In this document: one piece after another, positions 2,833-44,871 of the stretch
Position numbering within the stretch: the stretch's first letter is position 1
How the letters are laid out: every line of letters starts with the position of its first letter
Source: Planctomycetaceae bacterium
GTDB lineage: Bacteria; Planctomycetota; Planctomycetia; Planctomycetales; Planctomycetaceae
Length of the DNA: 56,163 nt
Assembly (NCBI GenBank): GCA_016779365.1
Contig: JADHNX010000001.1
Coordinates: forward strand, 1-56,163
Direction of reading: 5' to 3'
Position numbers and translations under genes: made by a program
The notes under the pieces: model-generated
Databases searched by the model: none
Told to the model about the DNA's origin: nothing
What the model saw: only the letters and a program-made list of their open reading frames with translations

Positions 2833-5595
2833 ATGATGAGAGCGATAGTTCACAACCCGTTACGTTATTTCCTGTCCACGATTGCATATACCGTCCTCGT
2901 TGTTGCGGCAGCCAGTGCGGATACCGGGCGGACGTTTGAAGCGGACGTGCGACTGATCCTCAAAGCCCATTGCTTTCACTGCCACGGGGAAGAGGGAAAG
3001 TCCGAAGGGAATCTCGACGTCCGACTCGTTCGGTTGCTCGTGAGGGGAGGCGATTCGGGACCGGCTGTGGTGGCGGGGAAAGCCGGGCAGAGCTATCTGA
3101 TCGAACGCCTCGAAAGCGGTGAGATGCCGCCGGGTGAAACGAAAGTTTCGGCGAGAGAACTGCGCGTGATCCGTGAGTGGATTGATCAGGGGGCTCGCAC
3201 GGCGCGTCCTGAGCCGGCCAATGCAGATCAACTGGCCTTCACCGAGGAAGAGCGGGCGTTCTGGTCATTCCAACCGGTTCTCGCCCCGCCGGTTCCCAGT
3301 GTCAAAGCGGCGGATCGAGTGCGCACACCGGTCGATGCGTTTGTGCTGGCGCGGCTTGATCAGGTCGCGGCCGAGACATCGTCTTCGCTCAGCTTATCAC
3401 CGGACGCCGATAAGGTGACTCTGATTCGGCGGGCTTACTTCGATCTGCTCGGGCAGCCGCCGTCTCCGGAGGAGGTCGATGCATTTCTGGCGGATGATGA
3501 TCCGCAGGCGTGGTCACGGCTGCTCGACCGGCTGCTTGATTCGGAACACTACGGCGAACGTTGGGCTCGGCACTGGCTGGACGTGGCCGGGTACGCCGAC
3601 AGCGATGGCTACAGCGAGCAGGACCGCGTCCGCGAATCGGCGTGGAAGTACCGCGACTACGTCATCCGTTCGCTGAATGCGGATAAGCCGTTCGATCAGT
3701 TTCTCGTCGAACAACTGGCCGGGGACGAACTGGTCGCGGGTGGGCTGGAGTCGTTTAACGGCAAGCCGAAGGCGGCTGCGTCCGGATCGTCGAAACGAAA
3801 CACCAACGCCTCCGTCTCGCCGTTGAACGAACGATTCCGCAATCTTTCGGAAGCCGACAAGGACCGGCTGATTGCGACCGGTTTTCTCCGTAACGCGCCG
3901 GACGGGACGGCCGATCGCGCCGTCGATCAGAACGTTGCCCGTAACGAAGTTTTGGCCGACACGATCAACATTGTTTCGACGTCGCTGCTGGGGCTGTCGG
4001 TTGGCTGTGCCCGATGCCACAGCCACCGGTTCGACCCGATCAGCCACGAAGACTATCACCGGATCCGGGCGATCTTCGAGCCGGCGTATGACTGGAAGAA
4101 CTGGCTTTTGCCGGAAGCCCGCCGACTCTCGTTGTGGAGTGATGCGGAACGTCAACTGGCCGAGGAAGTTGACGCCGAACTGGCGCAAGCGGCGGACGAA
4201 CGCAAGGAGCAGTTGAAGCAGCATCGATCCGATGTGCTGGGCATGGAGCTGGCCAAACTGCCGGCCGATGTCCAGACGCAGGCGGAACTCATTCGTGACG
4301 CCGTGCTGAACCGGTCAAGCAGAGACCGCACGCCGGAACAGGCTTCGATCCTGACGAAGTATCCGAAGCTGGACGTCGGCATCGGCACGCTCGCTCAGGC
4401 TCATAAGGAGCGTTACCAGACGGAACTCAAGGAATACAACGAACGCGTCGCGGAAATCACCGCACGACGGCCTAAGGACAATTTCGTCCGGGCGCTGTTC
4501 GAGCCCCCTGGCAACGTGCCCGTCACGCATCTCTTCCGTCGAGGCAGCCACACGCAGCCGGGCGAGGAAGTTCTGCCGGGTGAGTTGTCGGTGCTGACAC
4601 GCGGCGACGAGTCGGTTGTGCCGGCTAATGATCCGGGTCTGGAAACGACCGGCCGACGGCTCGCGTATGCCCGACATCTCACCGATGGAAAACATCCACT
4701 GACGGCGCGTGTGCTGGTCAACCGCATCTGGATGCATCACTTCGGACGCGGCATTGTGGGAACACCGAGCGACTTCGGTTCGCAGGGCGAGCGGCCGACG
4801 CATCCGGAACTGCTCGACTGGCTGGCCGATCATTTCGTCAAAAGCGGCTGGCGACTGAAAGAGCTGCACAAGCTGCTCATGATGTCGACCGTTTATCGGC
4901 AGTCCTCCAAACGGACCGAGATGCTCGACGCCGTCGATCCCGACAATCGGCTGCTCGGCCGGATGAATCTGCGGCGACTTGATGCCGAGACGATTCGTGA
5001 TACGGTGCTTGCCGTTTCGGGAAATCTCAACCGGGAGCTGTACGGTCCGCCGCTGCCGGTGACGGCCGATGGGGTCGGGCAAGTGGTCATCGGAACGCCG
5101 AAGAACGACCGCGAAGGGCGAGTCATTGCGTTGAAGGGAGACGCCGCCTTCCGCCGCAGCATCTACGTGCAGGCTCGACGAACGCTCAAGCTGGGTATGC
5201 TCGATGCGTTCGACGCTCCAACGATGACGCCCAACTGCGGGCAGCGGACATCGTCGACGGTCGCCAGCCAGTCGTTGCTGTTCATGAACAATGCGGAGTT
5301 GTTGAAGCAGGCAGAGATCTTCGCCGAGCGAGTCGTGAAGGACGCCGGCAGCGACGCCTCGGCGCAGATTCGACGAGCGTGGCGATTGGCGTTGTCGAGC
5401 GAACCAACCGCGGACCAGACGGAGCGCAGCGTCGCGTTTCTCGCGGCACAAACAGACTTCGCCGCGCAGCGAATCCGCGAACTGACGCCCGAGGAAACAA
5501 AGCAAGTCCGGTACGCCGAACAACCCGAGAAACAGGCGCTGGCGACATACTGCCAGTTCCTGCTGAGCAACAACGCGTTCTTATATGTGGACTGA
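2833..5595 (+). CDS. Planctomycete cytochrome-c (PSCyt) / DUF1549 / DUF1553 protein
   Basis: Signal-like N-terminus. CFHCHG heme-c motif (nt 2971-2985). DUF1549-type [33 protein letters not shown]. DUF1553-type [24 protein letters not shown]. Followed by its usual DUF1501 partner. Confidence 0.85.
   Translation: [920 protein letters not shown]
3752..3829. repeat. Degenerate in-frame copy (78 nt, 26 codons) of the cgtttaacggcaagccg... palindromic element inside the DUF1549/DUF1553 ORF
   Basis: The left end cgtttaacggcaagccgaaggcgg and right end ccgtctcgccgttgaacg resemble the intergenic copies at 5599 and 7174. The peptide SFNGKPKAA... matches the SFNGKPQAT read-through of those copies. The paralogue at 44868-47924 lacks about 30 aa at exactly this position. 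Confidence 0.7.
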
Positions 5596-5598
5596 CCT

Positions 5599-5672
5599 CG
5601 TTTAACGGCAAGCCGCAGGCGACGGTGTTTCCGACATACTGGACGCAGTCCCCTGCGGCTAGCCGTTAAACG
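5599..5672. repeat. REP-like palindromic element, family A, copy 1 (intergenic)
   Basis: Left arm cgtttaacggcaagccgcagg (5599-5619) pairs with right arm cctgcggctagccgttaaacg (5652-5672). It lies 4 nt after the stop at 5595 and may also act as a terminator hairpin. Confidence 0.8.
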
Positions 5673-5696
5673 AATCACCTCTTACCGATAACAACC

Positions 5697-7160: not shown

Positions 7161-7173
7161 CCCGCCGAGGATT

Positions 7174-7251
7174 CGTTTAACGGCAAGCCGCAGGCGACGG
7201 TGGTTCGTCGAGACACTTCGGACACGGTCGCCTGCGGCTTGCCGTTAAACG
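7174..7251. repeat. REP-like palindromic element, family A, copy 2 (intergenic)
   Basis: Left arm cgtttaacggcaagccgcaggcgacgg (7174-7200) pairs with right arm cggtcgcctgcggcttgccgttaaacg (7225-7251). The arms are 27 nt with 1 mismatch. Confidence 0.85.
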
Positions 7252-7292
7252 AGTCGATTCTAAGCCACATAGCACCCAACTGAATCCCTGAA

Positions 7293-30298: not shown

Positions 30299-30540
30299 TG
30301 ATGACCGACGTTCGGCAAAGCGGCGAAGCCGCGACAGCACTTAGCTGCGGGCGTCAGCCCGCAGACACCATTACAAAATTAAACAATAAGCCGCGAAGCG
30401 GCGACAGCAGGCTTGATTTGCTATCGCCGCTTCGCGGCTCGGTTGGGATTGGGGATGCGTTATCCCACGGCTTACGCCGTGGGCTATGTGCTATCGCCGC
30501 TTCGCGGCTGTACGTGGGTTCGAGATCGAACTCATCGCGG
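30299..30540. repeat. Intergenic cluster of hairpins and repeats (REP-like family B)
   Basis: aagccgcgaagcggcgacagcag (30388-30410) is the inverted match of tgctatcgccgcttcgcggct (30419-30439). That 21-mer recurs directly at 30489-30509. There are extra 8-bp hairpins ctgcgggc/gcccgcag (30345-30364) and cccacggc/gccgtggg (30464-30483). Confidence 0.75.
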
Positions 30541-32937
30541 GTGAAACTCGCCTTCGTCGTATTTTTACTCTCTCTCATTTCGCAGACTGGTTACGCTGAG
30601 GCGGCGGACTTTGTTTCCGACATTCAGCCGTTCTTTGCGAAGTACTGCGCCCGCTGCCACAACACAAAGAAACAGGAAGGCAACTTCCGACTGGATACAC
30701 TGGCCCGTGATTTCACCGACGAAGGGATCGCTCAGCGCTGGGCCGAAGTCGTCTTTCGAATGAACTCTGGCGAGATGCCTCCCAGGGATGAACCACAACC
30801 GCAACCGGACGAACTCGGCCGTGTCGTAGATTGGCTGTCAGCCCGCATCTCCGAAGGCCGGGCGGTACGGATGGCTCGGCGGGGTCCGGTCGCGCACTAT
30901 CGGCTCAGTCGCGAGGAGTACGCCCATACGGTCTACGACCTCCTCGGTGTTCATTTCGACGTCAACGCTCCTGGCGCTTTCAATGACGATCCGCGCTGGC
31001 ACGGGTTCGAGCGGATCGGTTCGTTACTGTCCCTTTCGCCGTCACATGTCGATCGCTACCTGCAAGCAGCCGAGACGGTCATCACGCGGGCTTTTCCCGA
31101 TGTGGCGCCCAAAGCGATCAAGGGTCGCCGTGACGACGGGGGAATGGCGGGAATCCCGACGGAAGGCGGACCGTATCGGGCCATCTACTGGCCGGGTGTG
31201 GAAGGAAACCATATTCACATGAGCAGCGGCGGCACGCCGGTGAAGGTGCGAATCAAGCTCAGCGGCCTTCAGCCACAAGGTGGGCGAGCCCCGCATCTCA
31301 CGGTTTGGGATTTCGTGCAGAAGAAGTCGATCTTCGATGAAGATATCGTCGCTCCCGAAAACAAGCCGGTTGTGGTGGAGTTCACGACGACAACCAGTAG
31401 TTTTCAACTGCTGAATGCCGTGACCGGATTCCCCGGCAACGCTCACACTCGCAGTAACACGGCCCGGCGGCTCGTCAGTTCGCGGCAGGCTCGCATCGGT
31501 CATCCCGCCGGGTACAAGCTGTTCGATGACGAAGGCCGACCGCTGTTTCCGCTCCTGCTGGTGGATTCCGTCGAGTGGGAGAGCGTGCCGGTCAGCGATC
31601 AGGACCGACAGAAACGCGAGGGCCTCTTTCCAACATCGATCACACGGAATGCCAAGGCGCCGGCGGACCGCGGACACATGGAAGAACTGCTCGGCGACTG
31701 TCGCAAGTCGCTGCAGCGATTTGCGGGGCGCGCCTGGCGGCGTCCGGTGACCGGCGACGAGGTCGAACGCTACGTCGCCATCGTGAAGGATGAACTCGAC
31801 GCGGGTGAACCATTCGGCTCGGCGTATCGATCAGCGTTGGTCGGTGTGCTGGTCTCGAAGAATTTTTACTACATCGTTGAAGGCTCGGCAGAGAAGCCGC
31901 GTGATCAATTGAACGACTGGGAACTCGCTTCGCGACTGTCATACTTTCTGTGGAGTTCGCTGCCGGATGAAGAACTCCTCGCATCCGCGCGGGACGGTTC
32001 GCTCCACCGGCCGGAGAGACTGAAGGCTCAGCTACAGCGGATGCTCGACGATCAACGCATCGGCCGCTTCACCGAGTCTTTCCCTCGGCAGTGGTTGCAA
32101 CTTCACCGCGTCGGCATGTTCCCGCCCGATCCAGGGCTCTATCCGAATTATGATCGCTGGCTGGAAAAGAGCATGGTGCTCGAAACACAGGCATACTTTG
32201 CGGAGGTCTTCTCGAAGAACCTGCCGCTGCGTCAGATTCTCCAGTCCGACTGGACCATGGTCAATCCGCGGCTGGCGAGTTTCTATCAACTCCCGCAGCT
32301 CAATAGTTCCGGCTTTCAGAAAGTCACGTTGCGTCCCGAAGATCACCGTGGAGGGCTGCTGACGCAAGCGGCGATTCTGTCGCTGACATCGGACGGCACG
32401 CGGCACCGCCCCGTGCATCGAGGCGTTTGGGTCTCGGAAGCCATCTTCGGACGTACGCCGCCATCACCGCCGCCCAATGTGGAGCCGTTGGAACCGACTC
32501 CCAGCAACAAACCCAAGGCGACAATTCGCGATCAACTGGAAGCCCATGCAACTCATGCGACCTGCGCTTCATGTCATCGGAAGATCGATCCGTTGGGATT
32601 TGCGTTCGACAACTACGACGCCATCGGAAGCTGGCGGACGACCGAGCGCGTGACATCGGGGCAGGGAGAAAACCCGCCCGTCGTCGCCAGCGGCGTGTTA
32701 CCCGACGGCCGACCGTTCAACGGACCGGACGAATTCACCCGCCTGCTGGCTCAGGATGTCGATCGCTTTGCAGAGGCTTTCATTGAACAGTTGGCAACCT
32801 ACGCACTGCGACGGGTCATGACGATCGACGACCGCGAGCAGATCAAGCTCATCGCGGCCGAATGCAGAAGAAACAATTACCAGCTTCGTAACGTCATCGA
32901 AAATCTCGTGACGTCGGAGCTGTTCCTCATGCGGTAA
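30541..32937 (+). CDS. DUF1587/DUF1592/DUF1588/DUF1585-type protein with heme-c motif (paralogue of 38262-40748)
   Basis: The GTG at 30541 gives a signal peptide (V/M)KLAFVVFLLSLISQTGYAEA. YCARCHN. HYRLSREEYAHTVYDLLG. LASRLSYFLWSSLPDEELL. CASCHRKIDPLGFAFDNYD. The upstream 246 nt of the track ORF is read-through of the repeat cluster. The start is uncertain. Confidence 0.75.
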   Translation: MKLAFVVFLLSLISQTGYAEAADFVSDIQPFFAKYCARCHNTKKQEGNFRLDTLARDFTDEGIAQRWAEVVFRMNSGEMPPRDEPQPQPDELGRVVDWLSARISEGRAVRMARRGPVAHYRLSREEYAHTVYDLLGVHFDVNAPGAFNDDPRWHGFERIGSLLSLSPSHVDRYLQAAETVITRAFPDVAPKAIKGRRDDGGMAGIPTEGGPYRAIYWPGVEGNHIHMSSGGTPVKVRIKLSGLQPQGGRAPHLTVWDFVQKKSIFDEDIVAPENKPVVVEFTTTTSSFQLLNAVTGFPGNAHTRSNTARRLVSSRQARIGHPAGYKLFDDEGRPLFPLLLVDSVEWESVPVSDQDRQKREGLFPTSITRNAKAPADRGHMEELLGDCRKSLQRFAGRAWRRPVTGDEVERYVAIVKDELDAGEPFGSAYRSALVGVLVSKNFYYIVEGSAEKPRDQLNDWELASRLSYFLWSSLPDEELLASARDGSLHRPERLKAQLQRMLDDQRIGRFTESFPRQWLQLHRVGMFPPDPGLYPNYDRWLEKSMVLETQAYFAEVFSKNLPLRQILQSDWTMVNPRLASFYQLPQLNSSGFQKVTLRPEDHRGGLLTQAAILSLTSDGTRHRPVHRGVWVSEAIFGRTPPSPPPNVEPLEPTPSNKPKATIRDQLEAHATHATCASCHRKIDPLGFAFDNYDAIGSWRTTERVTSGQGENPPVVASGVLPDGRPFNGPDEFTRLLAQDVDRFAEAFIEQLATYALRRVMTIDDREQIKLIAAECRRNNYQLRNVIENLVTSELFLMR

Positions 32938-37308: not shown

Positions 37309-38247
37309 ATGAACCGGATTGCTTTTCTGTTGATGCTATTGATTTCTGCGGCCGGCGTTGCCAGCGCTGACGGCGACCAATCGCTTGTCGCCGAAGGAAG
37401 CAAAGTCACAAAACTTGCAGGCGGAATGAAATTCACAGAGGGCCCGGTCTGGCTGCCGCAAGAAGAGAAGCTGGTGTTTTCGGACATCCCCAACAGCAAA
37501 CTCATGCAATGGAGTGAAGCCGGCGGTCTCTCCACGTACCGCGAGAGTGAGCAGGCCAATGGAAACATTCTGGACTTGCAGGGCCGAATCGTCTCCTGCC
37601 AGCACAAGGCGCGGAATGTTATTCGGATTGAGGACGATGGCAGCACAACGGTGCTCGCCGATCGCTTTGACGGAAAGCGGTTCAATTCGCCCAATGACGT
37701 GGCAATCCGCTCGGACGGAACGCTGTGGTTCACTGATCCACCCTGGGGATTGACCGGGCCGCATGAGATCCCCGGCCACTGGGTCTACAAGCTCGATCCC
37801 GCCAACGGCAGGGTCGAAGCGGTTCTCAAGAATCTGGCGATGCCGAATGGCATTGTGTTCTCACCGGATGAGTCGCGTCTCTACATCGCTGACACGGGCG
37901 GCCATAAGCGACATCCCGACCCCGCGTTCCACGCGCTGCCAGCAAGCATTCAGTGCTACGAAATCGAGCCCAAGGGCACGCTCGGCCGGAAACTGTTCCA
38001 GATCGATTCCGGCAGCGACGGGATGGCCGTGGATGTCAAGGGAAATCTTTACGCAACGCACGCCGGCAAAGTTCATATCTACGATGCCGACGGCCAGGAA
38101 CTGGAGCAGATCGACGTGCCCGAAGGTCCGGCAAACGTCTGCTTTGGCGGCGACGACTGCAAGACGCTGTTTATTACCGCACGCACCTCGCTCTACAGCG
38201 TGCGGGTGAAAGTTGCCGGAGCAAGACCGAAAGGCACTCTGAAGTGA
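37309..38247 (+). CDS. SMP-30/gluconolactonase/LRE-family protein
   Basis: GGAGG lies 5 nt upstream of the ATG at 37309. Signal peptide. FTEGPVW..LVFSDIPN, NSPNDVA..DG.LWFTDP, PNGI.FSPDE..LY.AD and DGM.VD..GNLY are propeller blocks typical of the family. Confidence 0.8.
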   Translation: MNRIAFLLMLLISAAGVASADGDQSLVAEGSKVTKLAGGMKFTEGPVWLPQEEKLVFSDIPNSKLMQWSEAGGLSTYRESEQANGNILDLQGRIVSCQHKARNVIRIEDDGSTTVLADRFDGKRFNSPNDVAIRSDGTLWFTDPPWGLTGPHEIPGHWVYKLDPANGRVEAVLKNLAMPNGIVFSPDESRLYIADTGGHKRHPDPAFHALPASIQCYEIEPKGTLGRKLFQIDSGSDGMAVDVKGNLYATHAGKVHIYDADGQELEQIDVPEGPANVCFGGDDCKTLFITARTSLYSVRVKVAGARPKGTLK

Positions 38248-38261
38248 TAAAACACGTACTG

Positions 38262-40748
38262 ATGACGGTTTGTCTTGTTACGGTCCCGGCGAGTGTTCTC
38301 CTCGCCGCTGACGACGACAGAAGCGTCCAACCGTTTTTTGCGAAGTACTGCTCGCGATGCCATGACGCGAAGAAGCAGGAAGGCGAGTTCCGGCTCGACA
38401 CGTTGTCTCGCGAGTTTTCCAAGATGCTTGTCGCGCAACGTTGGGGCGAGGTGCTGTTTCGTATCAACTCCGGCGAAATGCCGCCGAAGGACGAACCGCA
38501 ACCGTCGCCCGCCGAATTGGGCGAAGTTGCCGAGTGGATTTCGGCGCAGATCGACGAGGGCCGCGCGGCGCGAATGGCCCAACGCGGCCCCGTGACGCAT
38601 TACCGGCTCAGCCGCGATGAGTATGCGAACGTGGTCTACGACTTGCTCGGGGTTCACTTCGACGCTCGTATGCCCGGGGCGTTGAATGAGGATCCCCGCT
38701 GGCACGGGTTTGACCGCATCGGATCGATGCTCACGCTCTCTCCGTCGCACGTCACACGTTATCTATCAGCAGCGGAGACCGTTCTGAACGAGGCCTTCCC
38801 CACGCAGCCGCCGAAATCTTCGAAGCAGCGACAGGCAGCCGGGGCTCCCAATCGCTGGCTGATTCTGCCCGGCTGGCATCAGGGAAACATCAATGTCCAG
38901 CATTCGGGGCTGTATCGGATTCGCGTTCAGTTAAGCGCCCTGCCATCGTTCAAGGGCCGGCTGCCTCGGCTTTCCATTTGGAATAGCAGTCTCAAGCGGG
39001 CCGAAGTAGGTCGCGATGTCATTGCTTCGGAAGAAAAACCGACCGTCGTCGAGTTCGAAGCCTTCCTGCCGCAAGGCGGCTTTCGGCTGACCAACGAGGC
39101 CCCCGGCAAGCTGGACGACGGGCACACGCTAGGCTCCACGCCGAAGTCGGTGACAAGTCTGGCCGACATCCACATTGTGCCGAAGGGCTACAAACTGTTT
39201 ACGGACGAAGAGAAACCGCGGCCGATCTTCCCCATGCTGCTGGTCGATTGGCTGGAGTACGAAGGCCCGATCCTGACGGAAGCCGATCAGAAAAAGCGTG
39301 AAGGATTGTTTCCCGTGGGGCAGGTTTCCAACCTGCCGTCCGATTCACCGCAGGTTGAAAACCTGCTCCACGAAGCGAGATCCTGCTTGAACCGCTTCAT
39401 GGCGCTCGCCTGGCGACGCTCGCCGACCGATGCCGAAGTTGACCGCTATATGAAAATAATCGAATCGGAACTCGCGGCGGGGGAGAATTCTCGTTCGGCG
39501 TATCTTTCCGCAATGACCGGAGTGATGGCGTCGAAGAATTGTTATTACATCGTTGAGGGACAAAGTCGCCTTTCGCTCCGCGAAAGTAGCGGACATACAA
39601 CGAACACGTCTTTCGCGGAGCGAAAGGCGACAATGATCAACGACTGGGAACTCGCGTCGCGATTGTCTTTCTTCCTGTGGAGTTCGATGCCGGACGAAGA
39701 ATTATTGGAGGCCGCGGGCAAAGGTGAGTTGCATAAGCCAGATGTTCTGAGGACTCAGTTACAGCGCATGATGGCGGATCGAAAGATCGACCGTTTCGTG
39801 GATACGTTCCCCGGTCAGTGGCTGCAACTTCATCGCGTGGGCATGTTTCCGCCCGACCCGGAGCTGTACCCGGATTACGATGCATGGCTCGAACAGAGCA
39901 TGATCCGCGAGACGACCGGCGTCTTCGGGGAAGTGTTCTCGCGGAACCTGTCGATCCGCGAATTCCTGTCGTCGGACTGGACGGTGATGAACTCGCGTCT
40001 GGCCATGCACTATGGAATCGACTGGCGCGTAGTGGAATTCGCCAGAATTCCTGAAACCGGAGCATCCACGAACGTGACGAACAAGACGGGAGTTCTGGCG
40101 AACTCCACTACGTTGCGCCCCGGCTTTCACCGCGTTACGCTTGCTCCCGACGATCACCGTGGCGGGGTGCTGACGCATGCTTCGGTCCTGTCGCTGACGT
40201 CCGACGGCACGCGGCATCGCCCGGTGCATCGAGGCGTGTGGGTCTCCGAAGCGATCTTTGGTCGCACGCCGCCCCCGCCTCCACCGAATGTAGAGCCGCT
40301 TGAGCCGACGCCGAGTAACAAGCCCAAAGCCACGATTCGCGATCAACTGGAAGCCCACGCCACGCATGCGACCTGCGCTTCGTGTCATCAGAAGATCGAT
40401 CCGCTGGGATTCGCATTCGACAACTACGACGCCATCGGCCGCTGGCGGACACACGAGAAAGTCGCCGGAGGTCTGGGCGATGATCCACCTGTCAACGCGC
40501 GCGGGACCTTTCCGGACGGTCGGTCGTACGAAAATCCAGAGCAGTTCAAGCAGTTATTGGCCGGCGACCTCGATCGGTTCGCGGAAGCCTTCGTCGAACA
40601 ACTTGCCACCTTCGCATTGCGGCGTGTGATGACGATTGACGACCGCGAGCAAATCAAGGCCATCGCCGAAGCCAGCAAGCATGATCGCTATCGACTGCGC
40701 ACGGTGATCGAACAACTTGTGATGGCTGAACTGTTTCAGAAGAGGTAG
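38262..40748 (+). CDS. DUF1587/DUF1592/DUF1588/DUF1585-type protein with heme-c motif (paralogue of 30541-32937)
   Basis: The ATG at 38262 (or GTG at 38244) gives MTVCLVTVPASVLLAADD. YCSRCHD. About 70 percent identity by eye to the 30541 product, near-identical in the C-terminal CASCH region. The track start at 37953 lies inside the lactonase gene. Confidence 0.8.
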   Translation: MTVCLVTVPASVLLAADDDRSVQPFFAKYCSRCHDAKKQEGEFRLDTLSREFSKMLVAQRWGEVLFRINSGEMPPKDEPQPSPAELGEVAEWISAQIDEGRAARMAQRGPVTHYRLSRDEYANVVYDLLGVHFDARMPGALNEDPRWHGFDRIGSMLTLSPSHVTRYLSAAETVLNEAFPTQPPKSSKQRQAAGAPNRWLILPGWHQGNINVQHSGLYRIRVQLSALPSFKGRLPRLSIWNSSLKRAEVGRDVIASEEKPTVVEFEAFLPQGGFRLTNEAPGKLDDGHTLGSTPKSVTSLADIHIVPKGYKLFTDEEKPRPIFPMLLVDWLEYEGPILTEADQKKREGLFPVGQVSNLPSDSPQVENLLHEARSCLNRFMALAWRRSPTDAEVDRYMKIIESELAAGENSRSAYLSAMTGVMASKNCYYIVEGQSRLSLRESSGHTTNTSFAERKATMINDWELASRLSFFLWSSMPDEELLEAAGKGELHKPDVLRTQLQRMMADRKIDRFVDTFPGQWLQLHRVGMFPPDPELYPDYDAWLEQSMIRETTGVFGEVFSRNLSIREFLSSDWTVMNSRLAMHYGIDWRVVEFARIPETGASTNVTNKTGVLANSTTLRPGFHRVTLAPDDHRGGVLTHASVLSLTSDGTRHRPVHRGVWVSEAIFGRTPPPPPPNVEPLEPTPSNKPKATIRDQLEAHATHATCASCHQKIDPLGFAFDNYDAIGRWRTHEKVAGGLGDDPPVNARGTFPDGRSYENPEQFKQLLAGDLDRFAEAFVEQLATFALRRVMTIDDREQIKAIAEASKHDRYRLRTVIEQLVMAELFQKR
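39565..39631. repeat. Perfect 22-bp inverted repeat with 23-nt spacer, embedded in frame in the ORF
   Basis: gtcgcctttcgctccgcgaaag (39565-39586) is the exact reverse complement of ctttcgcggagcgaaaggcgac (39610-39631). The paralogue has 9 aa (SAEKPRDQL) where this gene has 26 aa (QSRLSLRESSGHTTNTSFAERKATMI). Confidence 0.85.
40028..40112. repeat. 24-bp inverted repeat (2 mismatches) with 37-nt spacer, embedded in frame in the same ORF
   Basis: cgtagtggaattcgccagaattcc (40028-40051) pairs with ggagttctggcgaactccactacg (40089-40112). The paralogue is about 28 aa shorter at exactly this point. Confidence 0.8.
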
Positions 40749-40932: not shown

Positions 40933-43900
40933 ATGAAAACGAATGTGATCTTATTGGTTTTACTGTGTTTTACCTCGGCCTCGGTTGTCGCTGATTTTAG
41001 TGATAAGCAAGCTGACCGGGACGCCCTGCCCGCCGTGCCCGCGGCGTTTGAAGTGACGTTGTTCGCCCGCGAGCCGCTGGTGCGGCAGCCATGCTCGATG
41101 GTGTTCGACGCGCGGGGGCGGCTGTTTGTCGGCATGGGACCGCAGTACCGAAATCCGACTCCCGAGACGCCCGGCGACAGTGTCGTGATGGTGCTGGACA
41201 CCGACCACGACGGGCAGGCGGATCAGACAAAAGTCTTCGCGACTGGTTTCAACGCCGTACAGGGGCTGGCGTGGCACGGTCGCGACTTGTGGGTCGCCAA
41301 CGCGCCCGACCTGACGGTCGTTCGTGACCTCGACGGTGATGACGAAGCCGACGAGTACGTGCGCATTTACACCGACCTCGGGAACCTCGAGCATGGACTG
41401 CACGGCCTCACGTGGGCTCCCGACGGCAAGTTGTACATGAGCAAAGGAAACTCGAAGGGACTCACCCAGCCGGGACGCGTCGCTCCGAAGCCGTTTCGCG
41501 ATTTGTGGGGTGTGACCGCACCGCCAGGCACGCCGGATTTCCCGGAACCACAGGTTTTTCGCAAGCAAGTCTACCGGCACGCTTATCACGATCCGGCAGA
41601 CGACTGGGGAATGGATGGCGGCGTTCTGCGTTGCGACGACGGCGGCGGGAATCTGGAGATCGTGTCGCGTGGCTTCCGCAATCCGTGGGACGTCGCACTG
41701 GACGACGGCTTTAACTGGCTGGGGACGGATAACGATCAGACCACCGGCGACCGCGTCTTCATGCCGTTCGACGGCGCCCACTTCGGGTGGAACCACCCGT
41801 GGAGTTCCCACTGGTCAGCCGCCCCGCATCCGCCGACCGCTCCTGTCAGCGGTCCGTTGTTCGAGGGTTCGGGAACCGGCGTCGTCTTCGGCGACTCCCC
41901 ACAGTTCCCGCCCGAGTATCGCGGCGTTTACTTCATCAACGACTGGCTGCGCAAGACGACCTTCGTCTGGCGACCGCATTGGGACGGAGCCTTGATGCGT
42001 CCCCGCGGCGGCGACTGGGAGCCGTTCATCGTCGGAGGAAAGTCGCTGTTCCGGCCGACAGATATCGAGTTTGGCCCGGACGGCGCGCTGTGGGTGCTCG
42101 GCTGGAGTAGCGGTTACGGGGCCGAATGGAAAGACGGCCAGCTCACCAACGAAGGCCGCATCTTCCGCATCACCTGGAAAGAGGCTCCGCCCATCAAGGC
42201 GACAGGCAAAGGCCGGTCACTCAAGAAGTGTTCCGTCGAGGAGTTGATCGGCGATTTCTCGAGTCCGCTGAGCGTCCGCCGCATCGACGCCCAGGACGAA
42301 CTCGTCCGACGCGGTGTGTCGGTCCGGCAGATGCTGATCGAAACACTTCAAAGCGGTCGGCTGACGAAGATGCAGGAAACCTGGACGGCCTGGACGCTGG
42401 GGCGGATCGCCATCGATGACACAACCATCGATCAGTTCTTCGCGCAGCTGTCAGCCGATGGCTCCAAAGCACGAGCTTCACTGAACCTGCGGATTCAGGC
42501 GGTGCGAATTCTGGGCGAGCGTGCGCGACGTGGGGCTTCGTTTGCGGGACTGGACGATGCGCTGCGTCTAGCGCTGGCGGACGACGAGCCGCGAGTTCGT
42601 ATGGCGGCCGTTCAGGCCGTGCTGCGAGCCAACCGCCGAAATCTGTACGTGGAACTCTGCAGCCTGCTGGAACGCGAGTCCGATGCCACCGTGTACTACG
42701 CCGCATGGCAGGCGTTGCGACGGTTGCTGAGCGAAGCGGATCTTCGTTCGCTGCTCGGGCTTCGTAGCGGTGGCTTCCAGCCGCCGAATTCACGAGCCCC
42801 GGCGGCTGGAAGCCACCGCTACGCGAGGGTGCAACGTGCGGCGTTGCTGGCTCTACTTGAAACGCATTCTCTTTCCCGACAGGAAGTCGCGGCTGTGCTG
42901 GCGAAACGTACCGCACCCGCAGTTCGCGAAATCGCTGAACTATGGTTGGCGAAAGCAGGTGCCGGAGCGGCCGAGCCGGTGGTTCGAGGACGGCCGATCG
43001 ACGCTCCATCCGTGGCGGCCGCTGTGCCATCGAATGACGGAGTCGCGGTTGTTGGCCGGTTGTCGACGAAGAGCCACCATAGGTACCGCATTCAGCCCGG
43101 CGGGCTGCGGCCCGGCGCGGCCGCCTATTCCGACCGCAACTATCGCTTCAGCACCATGCCGGACGAACTGGTGGGGCTGGACATCGTTCAAACGGCAAAC
43201 AATGACGACGGTTCGCAGGGCGACGACTGGCTTTCGGTTGATGCCTTGCTGCCGGTTCGCGTCTATGTTGGAAACGACATGCGGCAGACTCCGCCCAAAT
43301 GGTTGAGCGAGGAGTTCCGCCGCACCGAGCACATCGTCGCGATCGACGAGGGCGCGCGGTTCCAGCTTTTTGTGCGAGATTACTCCGCCGGCCCGGTTGC
43401 GCTGGGCGGCAACACCAATGATGGAAAGTCCGGGGGCAAGGGCAACTACATCGTCGCCGTTCAGCCGCAGCCATTGCAGAAGCAGGAGACGTCGGCGACC
43501 GTGGAACAGGCGCTGGCGCTGCTTGAGACTGCGGACCCAGCCCGCGGCGAACTCCTGTTCCGGCACGTCAGCGGAGCGGGATGTTTCAAGTGCCACAGCC
43601 TGGACGCGGCACGAAACGTGTTCGGCCCCAACCTCGGCGGCGTCGGCCTGCGAGCCAATCACCGTCATCTTGTTCAATCGATCATCGAGCCCAGCGCCGT
43701 CATTACCGAAGGTTTCACGATGCAGACAGTGCTGACCGATGACGGCAAAACGTATTCTGGTGTGCTGCTGGAGGAAAGCGGTCTGTCGGTGTCATTGGGC
43801 ATGAGTACTGGCGAGCGGGTCGACATTCCGAAGTCGCAGATTGAAGAGCGGCGCACCAGCCGCGTGTCGGCCATGCCGTCGATGGCGAACATTCTGTCGC

Positions 43901-44871
43901 CGCAGCAGGTCGCCGACGTCGCCGCGTTTCTGGCGGTGCAGAAAACGGCCGTGTCAAAGCCGAACGTGGACCCCGACGCACGATTCTCTGTGAAGGAAAA
44001 GCCCGATCGGCTGATCATCTCGTTGTCCGAGCAGTCGATTGCCGAATTCGTTTTCTCCGATCCGAAGATCCTCCGGCCGTACTTCGCGCAGGTGCGGACC
44101 CCCAGCGGCCGCCAGGTGACACGCAATCATCCGCCCGTCGCGGGTGTCGACGGGACCGACCACGACACGATGCACCCCGGCATCTGGCTCGCGTTTGGCG
44201 ACGTCAGCGGACACGACTTCTGGCGAAACAAGGGCCGAATCGACCACCTCCGCTTCACCGAACCACCGACCACGAAAAACAACGTGCTGACCTTTGCGAC
44301 GCAGTCACGATTGCTACGTTCTGACGGCAGCGAACTGTGCCGCATGCGCAGCCGCTTCGAATTGTACGCGCGTCCGGTGGGTTGGCTACTGAGTTGGGAA
44401 GCGACCTTCCAATCCGACACGGGCGAGTTCTCCTTTGGCGATCAGGAAGAGATGGGATTCGGCGCGCGGGTCGCCACGCCATTGACCGAGAAAAATGGCG
44501 GGGTGATCACGAGTTCCACTGGCCGGCGATCGGCCGCATCCACCTGGGGACAGGTGGCCGCGTGGTGCGATTACTCGGGCAAGCTCGGAGAGCGCCCGGT
44601 TGGCATCACGTTGATCCCCGACGCAGACAACTTCCGCGCCAGCTGGTGGCACAACCGCGACTACGGTGTGTTCGTCGCCAATCCGTTCGGCCGCGCGGCA
44701 ATGAAACAGGGCGACAAGAGCACCGTCACCATCCCACGAGGCCAGCCATTCCGCATCCGCTTCACCGCAGTCATCCATGAAGGTCAAAACTTCGCCCCGG
44801 AAGCTGAACGTCGGGCGATTCAGGAAGCACGGGACCAATCCGAAGCCGGGACAAAGAAGGAGTCGCCATGA
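40933..44871 (+). CDS. Large mosaic protein: membrane-bound-dehydrogenase-type beta-propeller + HEAT repeats + beta-sandwich domain + Pirellula/Verrucomicrobium-type heme-binding (CxxCH) domain + C-terminal PmoA-like DUF6807
   Basis: Signal peptide. FEVTLFAREPLVRQPCSMVFDARGRLFVG...GLAWHGRDLWV. DDEPRVRMAAVQAVLR HEAT units. GCFKCHS (43582-43596) followed by LVQSIIEPSAVITEGF. Tail ...ILRPYFAQVRTPSGRQVTRNHP...DHDTMHPGIWLAFGDV. Confidence 0.75.
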   Translation: MKTNVILLVLLCFTSASVVADFSDKQADRDALPAVPAAFEVTLFAREPLVRQPCSMVFDARGRLFVGMGPQYRNPTPETPGDSVVMVLDTDHDGQADQTKVFATGFNAVQGLAWHGRDLWVANAPDLTVVRDLDGDDEADEYVRIYTDLGNLEHGLHGLTWAPDGKLYMSKGNSKGLTQPGRVAPKPFRDLWGVTAPPGTPDFPEPQVFRKQVYRHAYHDPADDWGMDGGVLRCDDGGGNLEIVSRGFRNPWDVALDDGFNWLGTDNDQTTGDRVFMPFDGAHFGWNHPWSSHWSAAPHPPTAPVSGPLFEGSGTGVVFGDSPQFPPEYRGVYFINDWLRKTTFVWRPHWDGALMRPRGGDWEPFIVGGKSLFRPTDIEFGPDGALWVLGWSSGYGAEWKDGQLTNEGRIFRITWKEAPPIKATGKGRSLKKCSVEELIGDFSSPLSVRRIDAQDELVRRGVSVRQMLIETLQSGRLTKMQETWTAWTLGRIAIDDTTIDQFFAQLSADGSKARASLNLRIQAVRILGERARRGASFAGLDDALRLALADDEPRVRMAAVQAVLRANRRNLYVELCSLLERESDATVYYAAWQALRRLLSEADLRSLLGLRSGGFQPPNSRAPAAGSHRYARVQRAALLALLETHSLSRQEVAAVLAKRTAPAVREIAELWLAKAGAGAAEPVVRGRPIDAPSVAAAVPSNDGVAVVGRLSTKSHHRYRIQPGGLRPGAAAYSDRNYRFSTMPDELVGLDIVQTANNDDGSQGDDWLSVDALLPVRVYVGNDMRQTPPKWLSEEFRRTEHIVAIDEGARFQLFVRDYSAGPVALGGNTNDGKSGGKGNYIVAVQPQPLQKQETSATVEQALALLETADPARGELLFRHVSGAGCFKCHSLDAARNVFGPNLGGVGLRANHRHLVQSIIEPSAVITEGFTMQTVLTDDGKTYSGVLLEESGLSVSLGMSTGERVDIPKSQIEERRTSRVSAMPSMANILSPQQVADVAAFLAVQKTAVSKPNVDPDARFSVKEKPDRLIISLSEQSIAEFVFSDPKILRPYFAQVRTPSGRQVTRNHPPVAGVDGTDHDTMHPGIWLAFGDVSGHDFWRNKGRIDHLRFTEPPTTKNNVLTFATQSRLLRSDGSELCRMRSRFELYARPVGWLLSWEATFQSDTGEFSFGDQEEMGFGARVATPLTEKNGGVITSSTGRRSAASTWGQVAAWCDYSGKLGERPVGITLIPDADNFRASWWHNRDYGVFVANPFGRAAMKQGDKSTVTIPRGQPFRIRFTAVIHEGQNFAPEAERRAIQEARDQSEAGTKKESP
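42763..42823. repeat. Perfect 24-bp inverted repeat with 13-nt spacer, embedded in frame in the HEAT region of the ORF
   Basis: cgtagcggtggcttccagccgccg (42763-42786) is the exact reverse complement of cggcggctggaagccaccgctacg (42800-42823). It encodes RSGGFQPPNSRAPAAGSHRYA. Confidence 0.8.

Follow-up and report, generated by a model that had tools for sequence, protein, structure and literature searches.

The closest described counterparts of the element considered here are the repetitive extragenic palindromic (REP) and REPIN elements with their REP-associated tyrosine transposases (RAYTs), together called REPtrons, which were reportedly described by Nunvar in 2010 and by Bertels and Rainey in 2011. 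Another are the Rickettsia palindromic elements (RPEs), which Ogata et al. are said to have recognized in 2000 as in-frame insertions in protein-coding genes. The GTAG-tagged REP superfamily is the subject of Di Nocera et al. 2013 (PMC3733652), which already describes intragenic REP doublets encoding 20 to 30 amino acids (aa) and REPs that supply TAG stop codons, presents Rhodopirellula baltica as rich in both RAYTs and REPs, and mentions a degenerate GTMG tag class. Here, we analyze a stretch of 56,163 nucleotides (nt) from a Planctomycetaceae bacterium (contig JADHNX010000001.1, positions 1 to 56,163; hereafter the window), in which a palindrome at 39565-39631 lies in frame within a protein-coding open reading frame (ORF) that we term ORF B. 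We consider it very likely that this palindrome is a REPIN, i.e., two inverted REP units, belonging to a planctomycete REP family with a RAYT-like REPtron, and that it was inserted in ORF B in the lineage of the window. The host gene and the parts of the palindrome are as follows:

38262-40748, plus strand: host gene ORF B, encoding a PSCyt/PSD-domain (DUF1592-type) protein of 828 aa from the likely ATG at 38262 (mechanical ORF, 37953-40748).

39560-39634, plus strand: the 75-nt replacement segment, standing where the orthologue has 24 nt and coding for part of QSRLSLRESSGHTTNTSFAERKATMI, as delimited by DNA alignment to the orthologous locus L121 (see below), where the blastn alignment breaks exactly.

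39565-39586, plus strand: left REP unit GTCGCCTTTCGCTCCGCGAAAG (GTCGC-CTTTCGC-TCC-GCGAAAG), with its GTCGCC end outward; exact match to the 22-mer of the family.

39587-39609, plus strand: spacer TAGCGGACATACAACGAACACGT of 23 nt, starting with TAGCG, which is common in family members.

39610-39631, plus strand: right REP unit CTTTCGCGGAGCGAAAGGCGAC (CTTTCGC-GGA-GCGAAAG-GCGAC), reverse complementary to the left unit at every position.

An earlier reading of the window, made from the sequence only, had reported a perfect inverted repeat here, and the arms are indeed 22 nt long, 100% complementary, and 23 nt apart. Across 100 dinucleotide-preserving shuffles, with three mismatches tolerated, no match to the palindrome was recovered, giving a chance expectation of approximately zero. 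Each arm also contains a mini-hairpin of its own, with 7 bp and a 3-nt loop (CTTTCGC-NNN-GCGAAAG). At the RNA level, folding of the region yields a stem of 22 bp at -47.6 kcal/mol (z = -10.4), and as DNA, its folding energy is -31.8 kcal/mol.

The homologues of ORF B display the Pfam families PF07635, PF07626, PF07637, PF07631, PF07627, and PF07624. Comparison of ORF B with its approximately 59% identical paralogue A (30541-32937) bears out the in-frame replacement proposed earlier: ORF B reads YYIVEG-QSRLSLRESSGHTTNTSFAERKATMI-NDWELASRLS and paralogue A reads YYIVEG-SAEKPRDQL-NDWELASRLS, such that 26 aa stand in place of 9 between conserved flanks. A 9-residue loop occupies this site in 114 of 117 homologues, from all of which the insert is absent. 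Among them is the closest homologue, P0001, whose syntenic locus (L121) shares three upstream genes with the window and has a DNA identity of 90 to 95%. The possibility, raised in the sequence-only reading, that the segment is a standing feature of all orthologues thus does not hold. Alignment of ORF B to L121 by blastn breaks at exactly three places, each of them a palindromic doublet (39314-39372, 39565-39631, and 40028-40112). At the second of these, the 75 nt of 39560-39634 stand where the orthologue has 24 nt (CTCGCCTGATCAGCAGCGGCAGCG), a net increase of 51 nt (17 codons) without a target duplication. The earlier interpretation as a recent mobile-element insertion that kept the frame is supported, with the qualifications that the event is a replacement instead of a clean insertion and that "recent" means no more than younger than the split from an orthologue at that level of DNA identity.

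Two further aspects of the host gene bear on how the insert was accommodated. As read from the sequence, two frames of the left unit and three of the right unit are stop free; ORF B therefore stayed open, and such stop-free frames make the survival of these units within genes easier. An AlphaFold2 model built on a 117-sequence alignment reached a predicted local distance difference test (pLDDT) score of 81 and a predicted template modeling (pTM) score of 0.84, a 17-sequence alignment having given a pLDDT of 53, which is too poor for use. Residues 434-459, which the earlier reading had suggested should be located relative to loops, score 52 to 62 and lie between helices at 91 to 95; in this model, the 26 encoded residues are a predicted low-confidence surface loop of the DUF1592-type protein. 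The third doublet of ORF B (residues 588-618) scores 35 to 57 in the same model. The same REP doublet is also found at the same codon position (TPD-SRLSLRESGENTTADATFAERKTT-LI) in P0017, a homologue encoded in locus L122 that shares 74% identity with ORF B when the inserts are left aside. We rejected an assembly artifact, given that the reading frame is intact and that an element of this family occupies the same position in this independent assembly.

Beyond this gene, the palindrome belongs to a widely dispersed repeat family. A scan for the exact 22-mer in one genome per species recovered at least 120 contigs, all labeled Planctomycetota, which disposes of the earlier concern that the 22-mer might be unique. 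Among the matches listed, these contigs represent families of Pirellulales, Planctomycetales, Gemmatales, and Isosphaerales, with labels including Pirellulaceae, Planctomycetaceae, Thermoguttaceae, Gemmataceae, Isosphaeraceae, Schlesneria, and Fuerstiella; a few metagenome-assembled genomes (MAGs) with the 22-mer are labeled Kuenenia, and their binning was judged unreliable. With at most four substitutions allowed, 261 units were identified in 122 loci plus the window. Adjacent units are paired in the inverted orientation seen in the window, with GTCGCC outward, in 97 of 117 cases, and the spacers between paired units range from 3 to approximately 130 nt (mode of 6, clustering at 6 to 8), a range that includes the 23 nt of the window. 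Some units stand alone or in short tandem arrays, and for MAGs and isolates other than the genome of the window, copies are found on several contigs each. The extended unit of approximately 30 nt, (A)TAGT-CGC-CTTTCGC-TCC-GCGAAAG-TA-GCG, folds by itself; its stem has 10 bp and a bulge of 2 nt, and the folding energy as DNA is -8.1 kcal/mol for one strand and -8.3 kcal/mol for the other. At stem pairs 1-17 and 5-13, double C:G-to-T:A changes were seen in 14 and 11 units, respectively, versus two to three C:A breaks, these being counts of units rather than of independent events, and the compensated variant TTTTCGC...GCGAAAA is used throughout the lineage represented by L209-211.

The family is mainly extragenic, since a frame that stays open for 100 aa or more in each direction was found for 12% of the elements (109 elements far enough from contig ends) versus 49.5% of random positions. 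True in-frame intragenic copies were recognized in proteins that are unrelated by their Pfam content, namely, in L052, where the copy separates a DUF7133 domain from HEAT repeats; in L005, where it separates a Ser/Thr kinase domain from WD40 repeats; in L062, where it is part of a glycoside hydrolase linker; and in L029, where it lies inside an N-terminal DPPIV propeller. A Pfam scan of the 150 ORFs adjoining elements revealed no enriched neighbor family, the 25 most frequent families listed being diverse housekeeping ones, as is expected for a dispersed nonautonomous repeat. In several unrelated genomes (L084 at approximately 4650-4760, L026, L005, L024, L036, and L091), we also observed a longer imperfect palindrome around the doublet (...CTAAGGACCGGCGAATCAATAAGT-[doublet]-ACTTATTGATTCGCCGGTCCTTAG...), flanks that suggest a longer composite element of approximately 100 nt; the window copy is without them. 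Separately, the exact 22-mer, partly in the form of doublets, is present in five IMG/VR contigs classed as viral (L212-L216; GC contents of 56 to 63%).

To identify a transposase, all ORFs of the loci and of the window were searched with one RAYT-family profile and with the RAYT/TIRYT seeds from Additional file 5 of PMC3733652. A single ORF matched, coding for an HUH/Y1 protein of 222 aa from Roseiconus nitratireducens (L008) with the motifs VMPNHVHLL (HUH) and YIRDNGKKAGL (Tyr); a REP pair precedes its gene by approximately 60 nt, and a REP unit follows the gene at a distance of 45 nt. This protein has 2037 homologues at an E value of ≤1e-5, the best 120 of the 2037 being 62 to 76% identical to it. 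REP units were found directly on both sides of the conserved gene, which encodes a 216- to 223-aa HUH/Y1 protein, in 7 of 7 genomes (L008, L203, L204, L205, L206, L207, and L209-211). In the six further genomes ("Candidatus Laterigemmans baculatus," a Rubripirellula MAG, Roseiconus lacunae, Neorhodopirellula lusitana, Blastopirellula sp. J2-11, and a Pirellulales MAG lineage), REP units or doublets are located approximately 20 to 170 nt upstream of the start, with more at the stop codon or 0 to 40 nt past it, and in L203, L205, and L206, the ATAGTCGCC of the REP supplies the TAG stop of the gene. Such a gene with its flanking REPs has the layout of a REPtron. The protein matches the NCBIfam family NF047646, "REP-associated tyrosine transposase," with E values of 1e-12 to 4e-14. 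A regular-expression search over all loci (HUH...Y[IVL]..[NE][PQ]) gave no match, which is a false negative because the RAYT-like family has YIRDNG.

As a specificity control, we considered 80 metagenome loci around the RB11751-type RAYT family, which contain 0 copies of the window REP and share instead a GTAG-tagged REP (GTAG-CTGAAYTC...GARTTC). The RB11751-type RAYT, the sequence of which is given in the above-mentioned Additional file 5 of PMC3733652, was accordingly rejected as the cognate enzyme. Taken together, the doublets, the RAYT linkage, and this control point to the palindrome of the window being, in all likelihood, a REPIN of the system typified by L008. With regard to the surroundings of the RAYT-like gene, we also observed that L207 and L208, two assemblies of near-identical Blastopirellula DNA, differ at approximately 1330-1480, upstream of that gene, where the entire upstream REP cluster is missing from one of them between two CGAAA microhomologies; this difference is either a collapse in short-read assembly or a natural deletion.

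Several observations count against assigning the palindrome to such a REPtron. The outward end of the unit is (A)TAGTCGC, i.e., an atypical (A)TAGTCG or GTCG tag instead of the canonical 5' GTAG of REPs, and GTAG occurs solely on the inner 3' side (GAAAGTAGCG). An exact 22-mer spread over a whole class or phylum is likewise atypical of REPs and could reflect a host function. The RAYT-like protein scores 48 to 53 bits against NF047646, for which the cutoff is 80, and 17 to 21 bits against Pfam Y1_Tnp, for which it is 23, and a sequence search of the PDB with it gave no significant match to a solved structure. Neither a RAYT gene nor a second copy of the REP was found in the 56-kb window, where one copy is seen, or in the 14-kb orthologous locus; the system is therefore not demonstrated in the genome of the window itself. 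Finally, there is no clean empty site, and because 24 nt of the host are missing, the junctions cannot reveal the chemistry of the insertion.

In studies by Nunvar in 2010, Bertels and Rainey in 2011, and Ton-Hoang and Messing in 2012, the Y1 enzyme reportedly recognizes the REP hairpin in single-stranded DNA and moves REPINs. By this precedent and to judge from the linkage described above, the RAYT would have moved the doublet through single-strand hairpin recognition, as in the case of Escherichia coli TnpA-REP, and one REP doublet would have entered the coding sequence of ORF B, replacing the variable 9-residue loop. The insert is probably neutral for the protein, and the 22-bp hairpin in the mRNA may, at most, modulate translation or the stability of the transcript. 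From what is known of REP/RAYT and IS200/IS605 elements, insertions that break genes would be purged, with those in permissive loops and open frames remaining.

An alternative, which we regard as quite unlikely, is that the repeat is primarily functional for the host, as a protein-binding site or an RNA hairpin, and that the copy in ORF B is kept as a regulator of the gene. Identity of the 22-mer across very distant Planctomycetota could be taken in this sense but is equally explained by recognition by a conserved RAYT. The window copy does form a perfect 22-bp stem, a length that in principle suffices for RNase III, and the same REP recurs at the same codon position in the distant orthologue P0017; yet the insert is dispensed with in 114 of the 117 homologues, and the copies elsewhere adjoin unrelated housekeeping genes with no shared theme. 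Unlike an intrinsic terminator, the palindrome has no T-run 3' of it, and it matches no Rfam family at the gathering score (best E value of 1.1 in a permissive scan).

It appears still less probable, indeed very improbable, that the segment is ancestral, or was recombined from a P0017-like allele, and was then lost from the other orthologues. What speaks for such a history is P0017 itself, with the same doublet at the same site, a loosely similar spacer, and a right junction identical to that of ORF B (...GACAWT|GATCAACGAC); the left junction differs, with more host sequence retained. In a neighbor-joining tree, however, ORF B is nested among the insert-free P0001, P0002, P0003, and P0005, in which the SPxQQRQRI loop typical of the family is retained, and P0017, at 74% identity, is far off. 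The flanks in ORF B match L121, to which they are 92 to 95% identical, and not L122. Moreover, the ancestral loop codons are kept in P0001 and lost in the window copy; the state of the orthologue therefore cannot be derived from ORF B by excision. Given the placement in the tree and the lost codons, two independent insertions of the same REP in ORF B and P0017 are apparently the simplest reading of these sequences. The origin of the repeat as a miniature inverted-repeat transposable element, i.e., an element derived by deletion from an insertion sequence of the DDE type and marked by terminal inverted repeats and a target-site duplication, is scarcely credible despite its inverted-repeat architecture, its many dispersed copies, and the longer imperfect inverted flanks around the core in some genomes, because the flanking bases continue the palindrome (e.g., tgt...aca and ata...tat) and are not direct duplications, no transposase besides the Y1/HUH gene is linked to it (there being no DDE transposase among the 25 most frequent neighbor families listed for the 150 adjoining ORFs), and single units and tandem arrays are common, as in REPs.

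Two more palindromic doublets lying in frame account for the other breaks in the alignment of ORF B to its orthologue:

39314-39372, plus strand: second palindromic doublet, of a different repeat family, with 26-nt arms that are 88% complementary and a 7-nt spacer (GTGG-GGCAGGT-TTCCA-ACCTGCC); encodes VGQVSNLPSDSPQVENLL.

40028-40112, plus strand: third palindromic doublet, a GTAG-tagged REP of another family, with 24-nt arms that are 92% complementary and a 37-nt spacer (CGTAG-TGGAATTC-GCCA-GAATTCC); encodes ...VVEFARIPETGAST...VLANSTTL.

The second doublet is absent from the closest orthologue, L121, yet a similar 18-aa segment is present in approximately 30 of the 117 homologues, these being more distant; its history of gain and loss is therefore not simple. 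The site corresponding to 39314-39372 is occupied in L122 by a GTAG-tagged doublet, CGTAGGACGGGTCTCCCGGCCCGTCC; of the two intervals L122 1542-1609 and 1810-1879, one is this doublet and the other is the REP doublet of P0017. The third doublet is absent from L121 and from 100 of the 117 homologues, and its site has other inserts of several kinds in approximately 17 of the 117. In 15 of the 80 metagenome loci, RAYT genes of the RB11751 type are flanked by the core 14-mer of this doublet, ATTCGCCAGAATTC, and the doublet looks like the R. baltica GTAG-21 family (peptides SRIRQEF and GFARIR) of PMC3733652. At the same loop, P0054 (L217 1968-2040) has an inverted repeat with 28-nt arms (AGCCGGAACGTGCTAGCGTCCGGTT...) that belongs to yet another family, and P0007 has a different, putatively palindromic insert at the site of the REP doublet of the window. 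Two loops of one orthologous group are occupied by at least four different palindromic families.

This pattern allows a broader proposal, which we hold to be unlikely and offer tentatively: the REP and RAYT might be an ancient, vertically kept pair, with a 22-nt recognition sequence that has remained unchanged across Planctomycetia, and its REPINs, together with those of sister families, might insert repeatedly at the same few positions of genes for PSD-domain (DUF1592-type) proteins owing to a target preference of the transposase or of the insertion process. The alternative to target preference is that those loops alone tolerate inserts. If the preference is real, loop insertions in a large family of planctomycete proteins would arise from REPINs recurrently and in a partly directed manner. 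The occupation of two loops by several palindromic families constitutes a natural test of insertional tolerance versus target preference.

Other repeats were observed elsewhere in the window. The next long ORF (40933-44871, 1312 aa) contains an inverted repeat at 42763-42823, with perfectly complementary arms of 24 nt and a spacer of 13 nt (CGTAG-CGGTGGC-TTCCA-GCCGCCG), apparently another GTAG-tagged REP doublet within a gene. Directly upstream of the start of paralogue A, the region 30319-30509 includes three copies of AGCCGCGAAGCGGCGACAGCA and two matches to the Rfam family Acido-Lenti-1, at 30319-30364 (minus strand, 44.5 bits) and 30464-30509 (plus strand, 53.9 bits), for which the gathering score is 37; the arrangement looks like a REP cluster. 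Class 3 TnpA-Y1 occurs in Planctomycetes and Acidobacteria (PMC6006769), and we speculate that the Acido-Lenti-1 "RNA motif" is a REP-type repeat, possibly of this class. Two inverted-repeat doublets of another family (TCGTTTAACGGCAAGCCGCAGGCGACGGTG), with 31- to 33-nt arms that are 87 to 94% complementary, are found at 5598-5673 and 7170-7255.

These observations have a direct consequence for annotation, in that the odd residues of ORF B are repeat derived, as is likewise to be expected for many planctomycete proteins with ...RLSLRES..., ...FAERKAT..., ...FRGAKGD..., or ...VAFRSAK.... Further, the REP and its candidate cognate transposase in Planctomycetota form a well-conserved pair that is good for studying the persistence of REPIN-RAYT associations because its conservation is unusual, with the best 120 of the 2037 proteins at the identities given above and the 22-mer exact across several orders. 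Literature searches on the sequence of the element, on the encoded peptides, and on Planctomycetes in combination with REPIN and RAYT yielded no description of it, the families in Figure 1 of PMC3733652, which could include the unit, being outside the comparison.

Of the systems compared, IS200/IS605 elements share with the present one a TnpA of the Y1 HUH type, with the HUH motif VMPNHVHLL and a catalytic tyrosine motif, and hairpins that flank the gene. They differ in that the RAYT-like gene is apparently single copy with neighbors that vary by genome, in that the hairpins have been amplified on their own, and in the weak Y1_Tnp match noted above. The likeness to RPEs is functional only: both are palindromic repeats that are inserted in frame, are translated, and occupy permissive surface positions at which they are tolerated. 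RPEs are known to be longer, and their sequence families are probably unrelated to that of the window; the latter has a linked RAYT-like gene, whereas RPEs are described by Di Nocera et al. (PMC3733652) as having a CGTC tag, with no dedicated transposase reported there. As read from its sequence, the window unit is without a CGTC terminus. The closest correspondence is with the REP/REPIN-RAYT systems, given that the window family consists of short hairpin units, predominantly in tag-outward inverted doublets ("HH" dimers), with, in other genomes, many dispersed and mostly extragenic copies, occasional tandem clusters, and units on either side of a single HUH/Y1 gene, whose TAG stop they can supply. 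It departs from them in its outward tag, (A)TAGTCG or GTCG, which would fit only the degenerate GTMG class of PMC3733652; in the conservation of the unit over a class or phylum rather than a genus; and in a RAYT-like protein whose motif reads YIRDNG instead of YI..NP and whose scores fall short of the curated cutoffs. The peptides given for R. baltica GTAG-20, -21, and -22 in PMC3733652 do not match the window element. On the basis of these comparisons, the event in ORF B is real but ordinary, being an intragenic REP/REPIN like the RPEs of Rickettsia, and leaves the general picture of REPs unchanged; its unusual aspects are the phylum-scale conservation of a REP and RAYT, the occurrence of three doublets within a single gene, and the reuse of the same loops by several repeat families.

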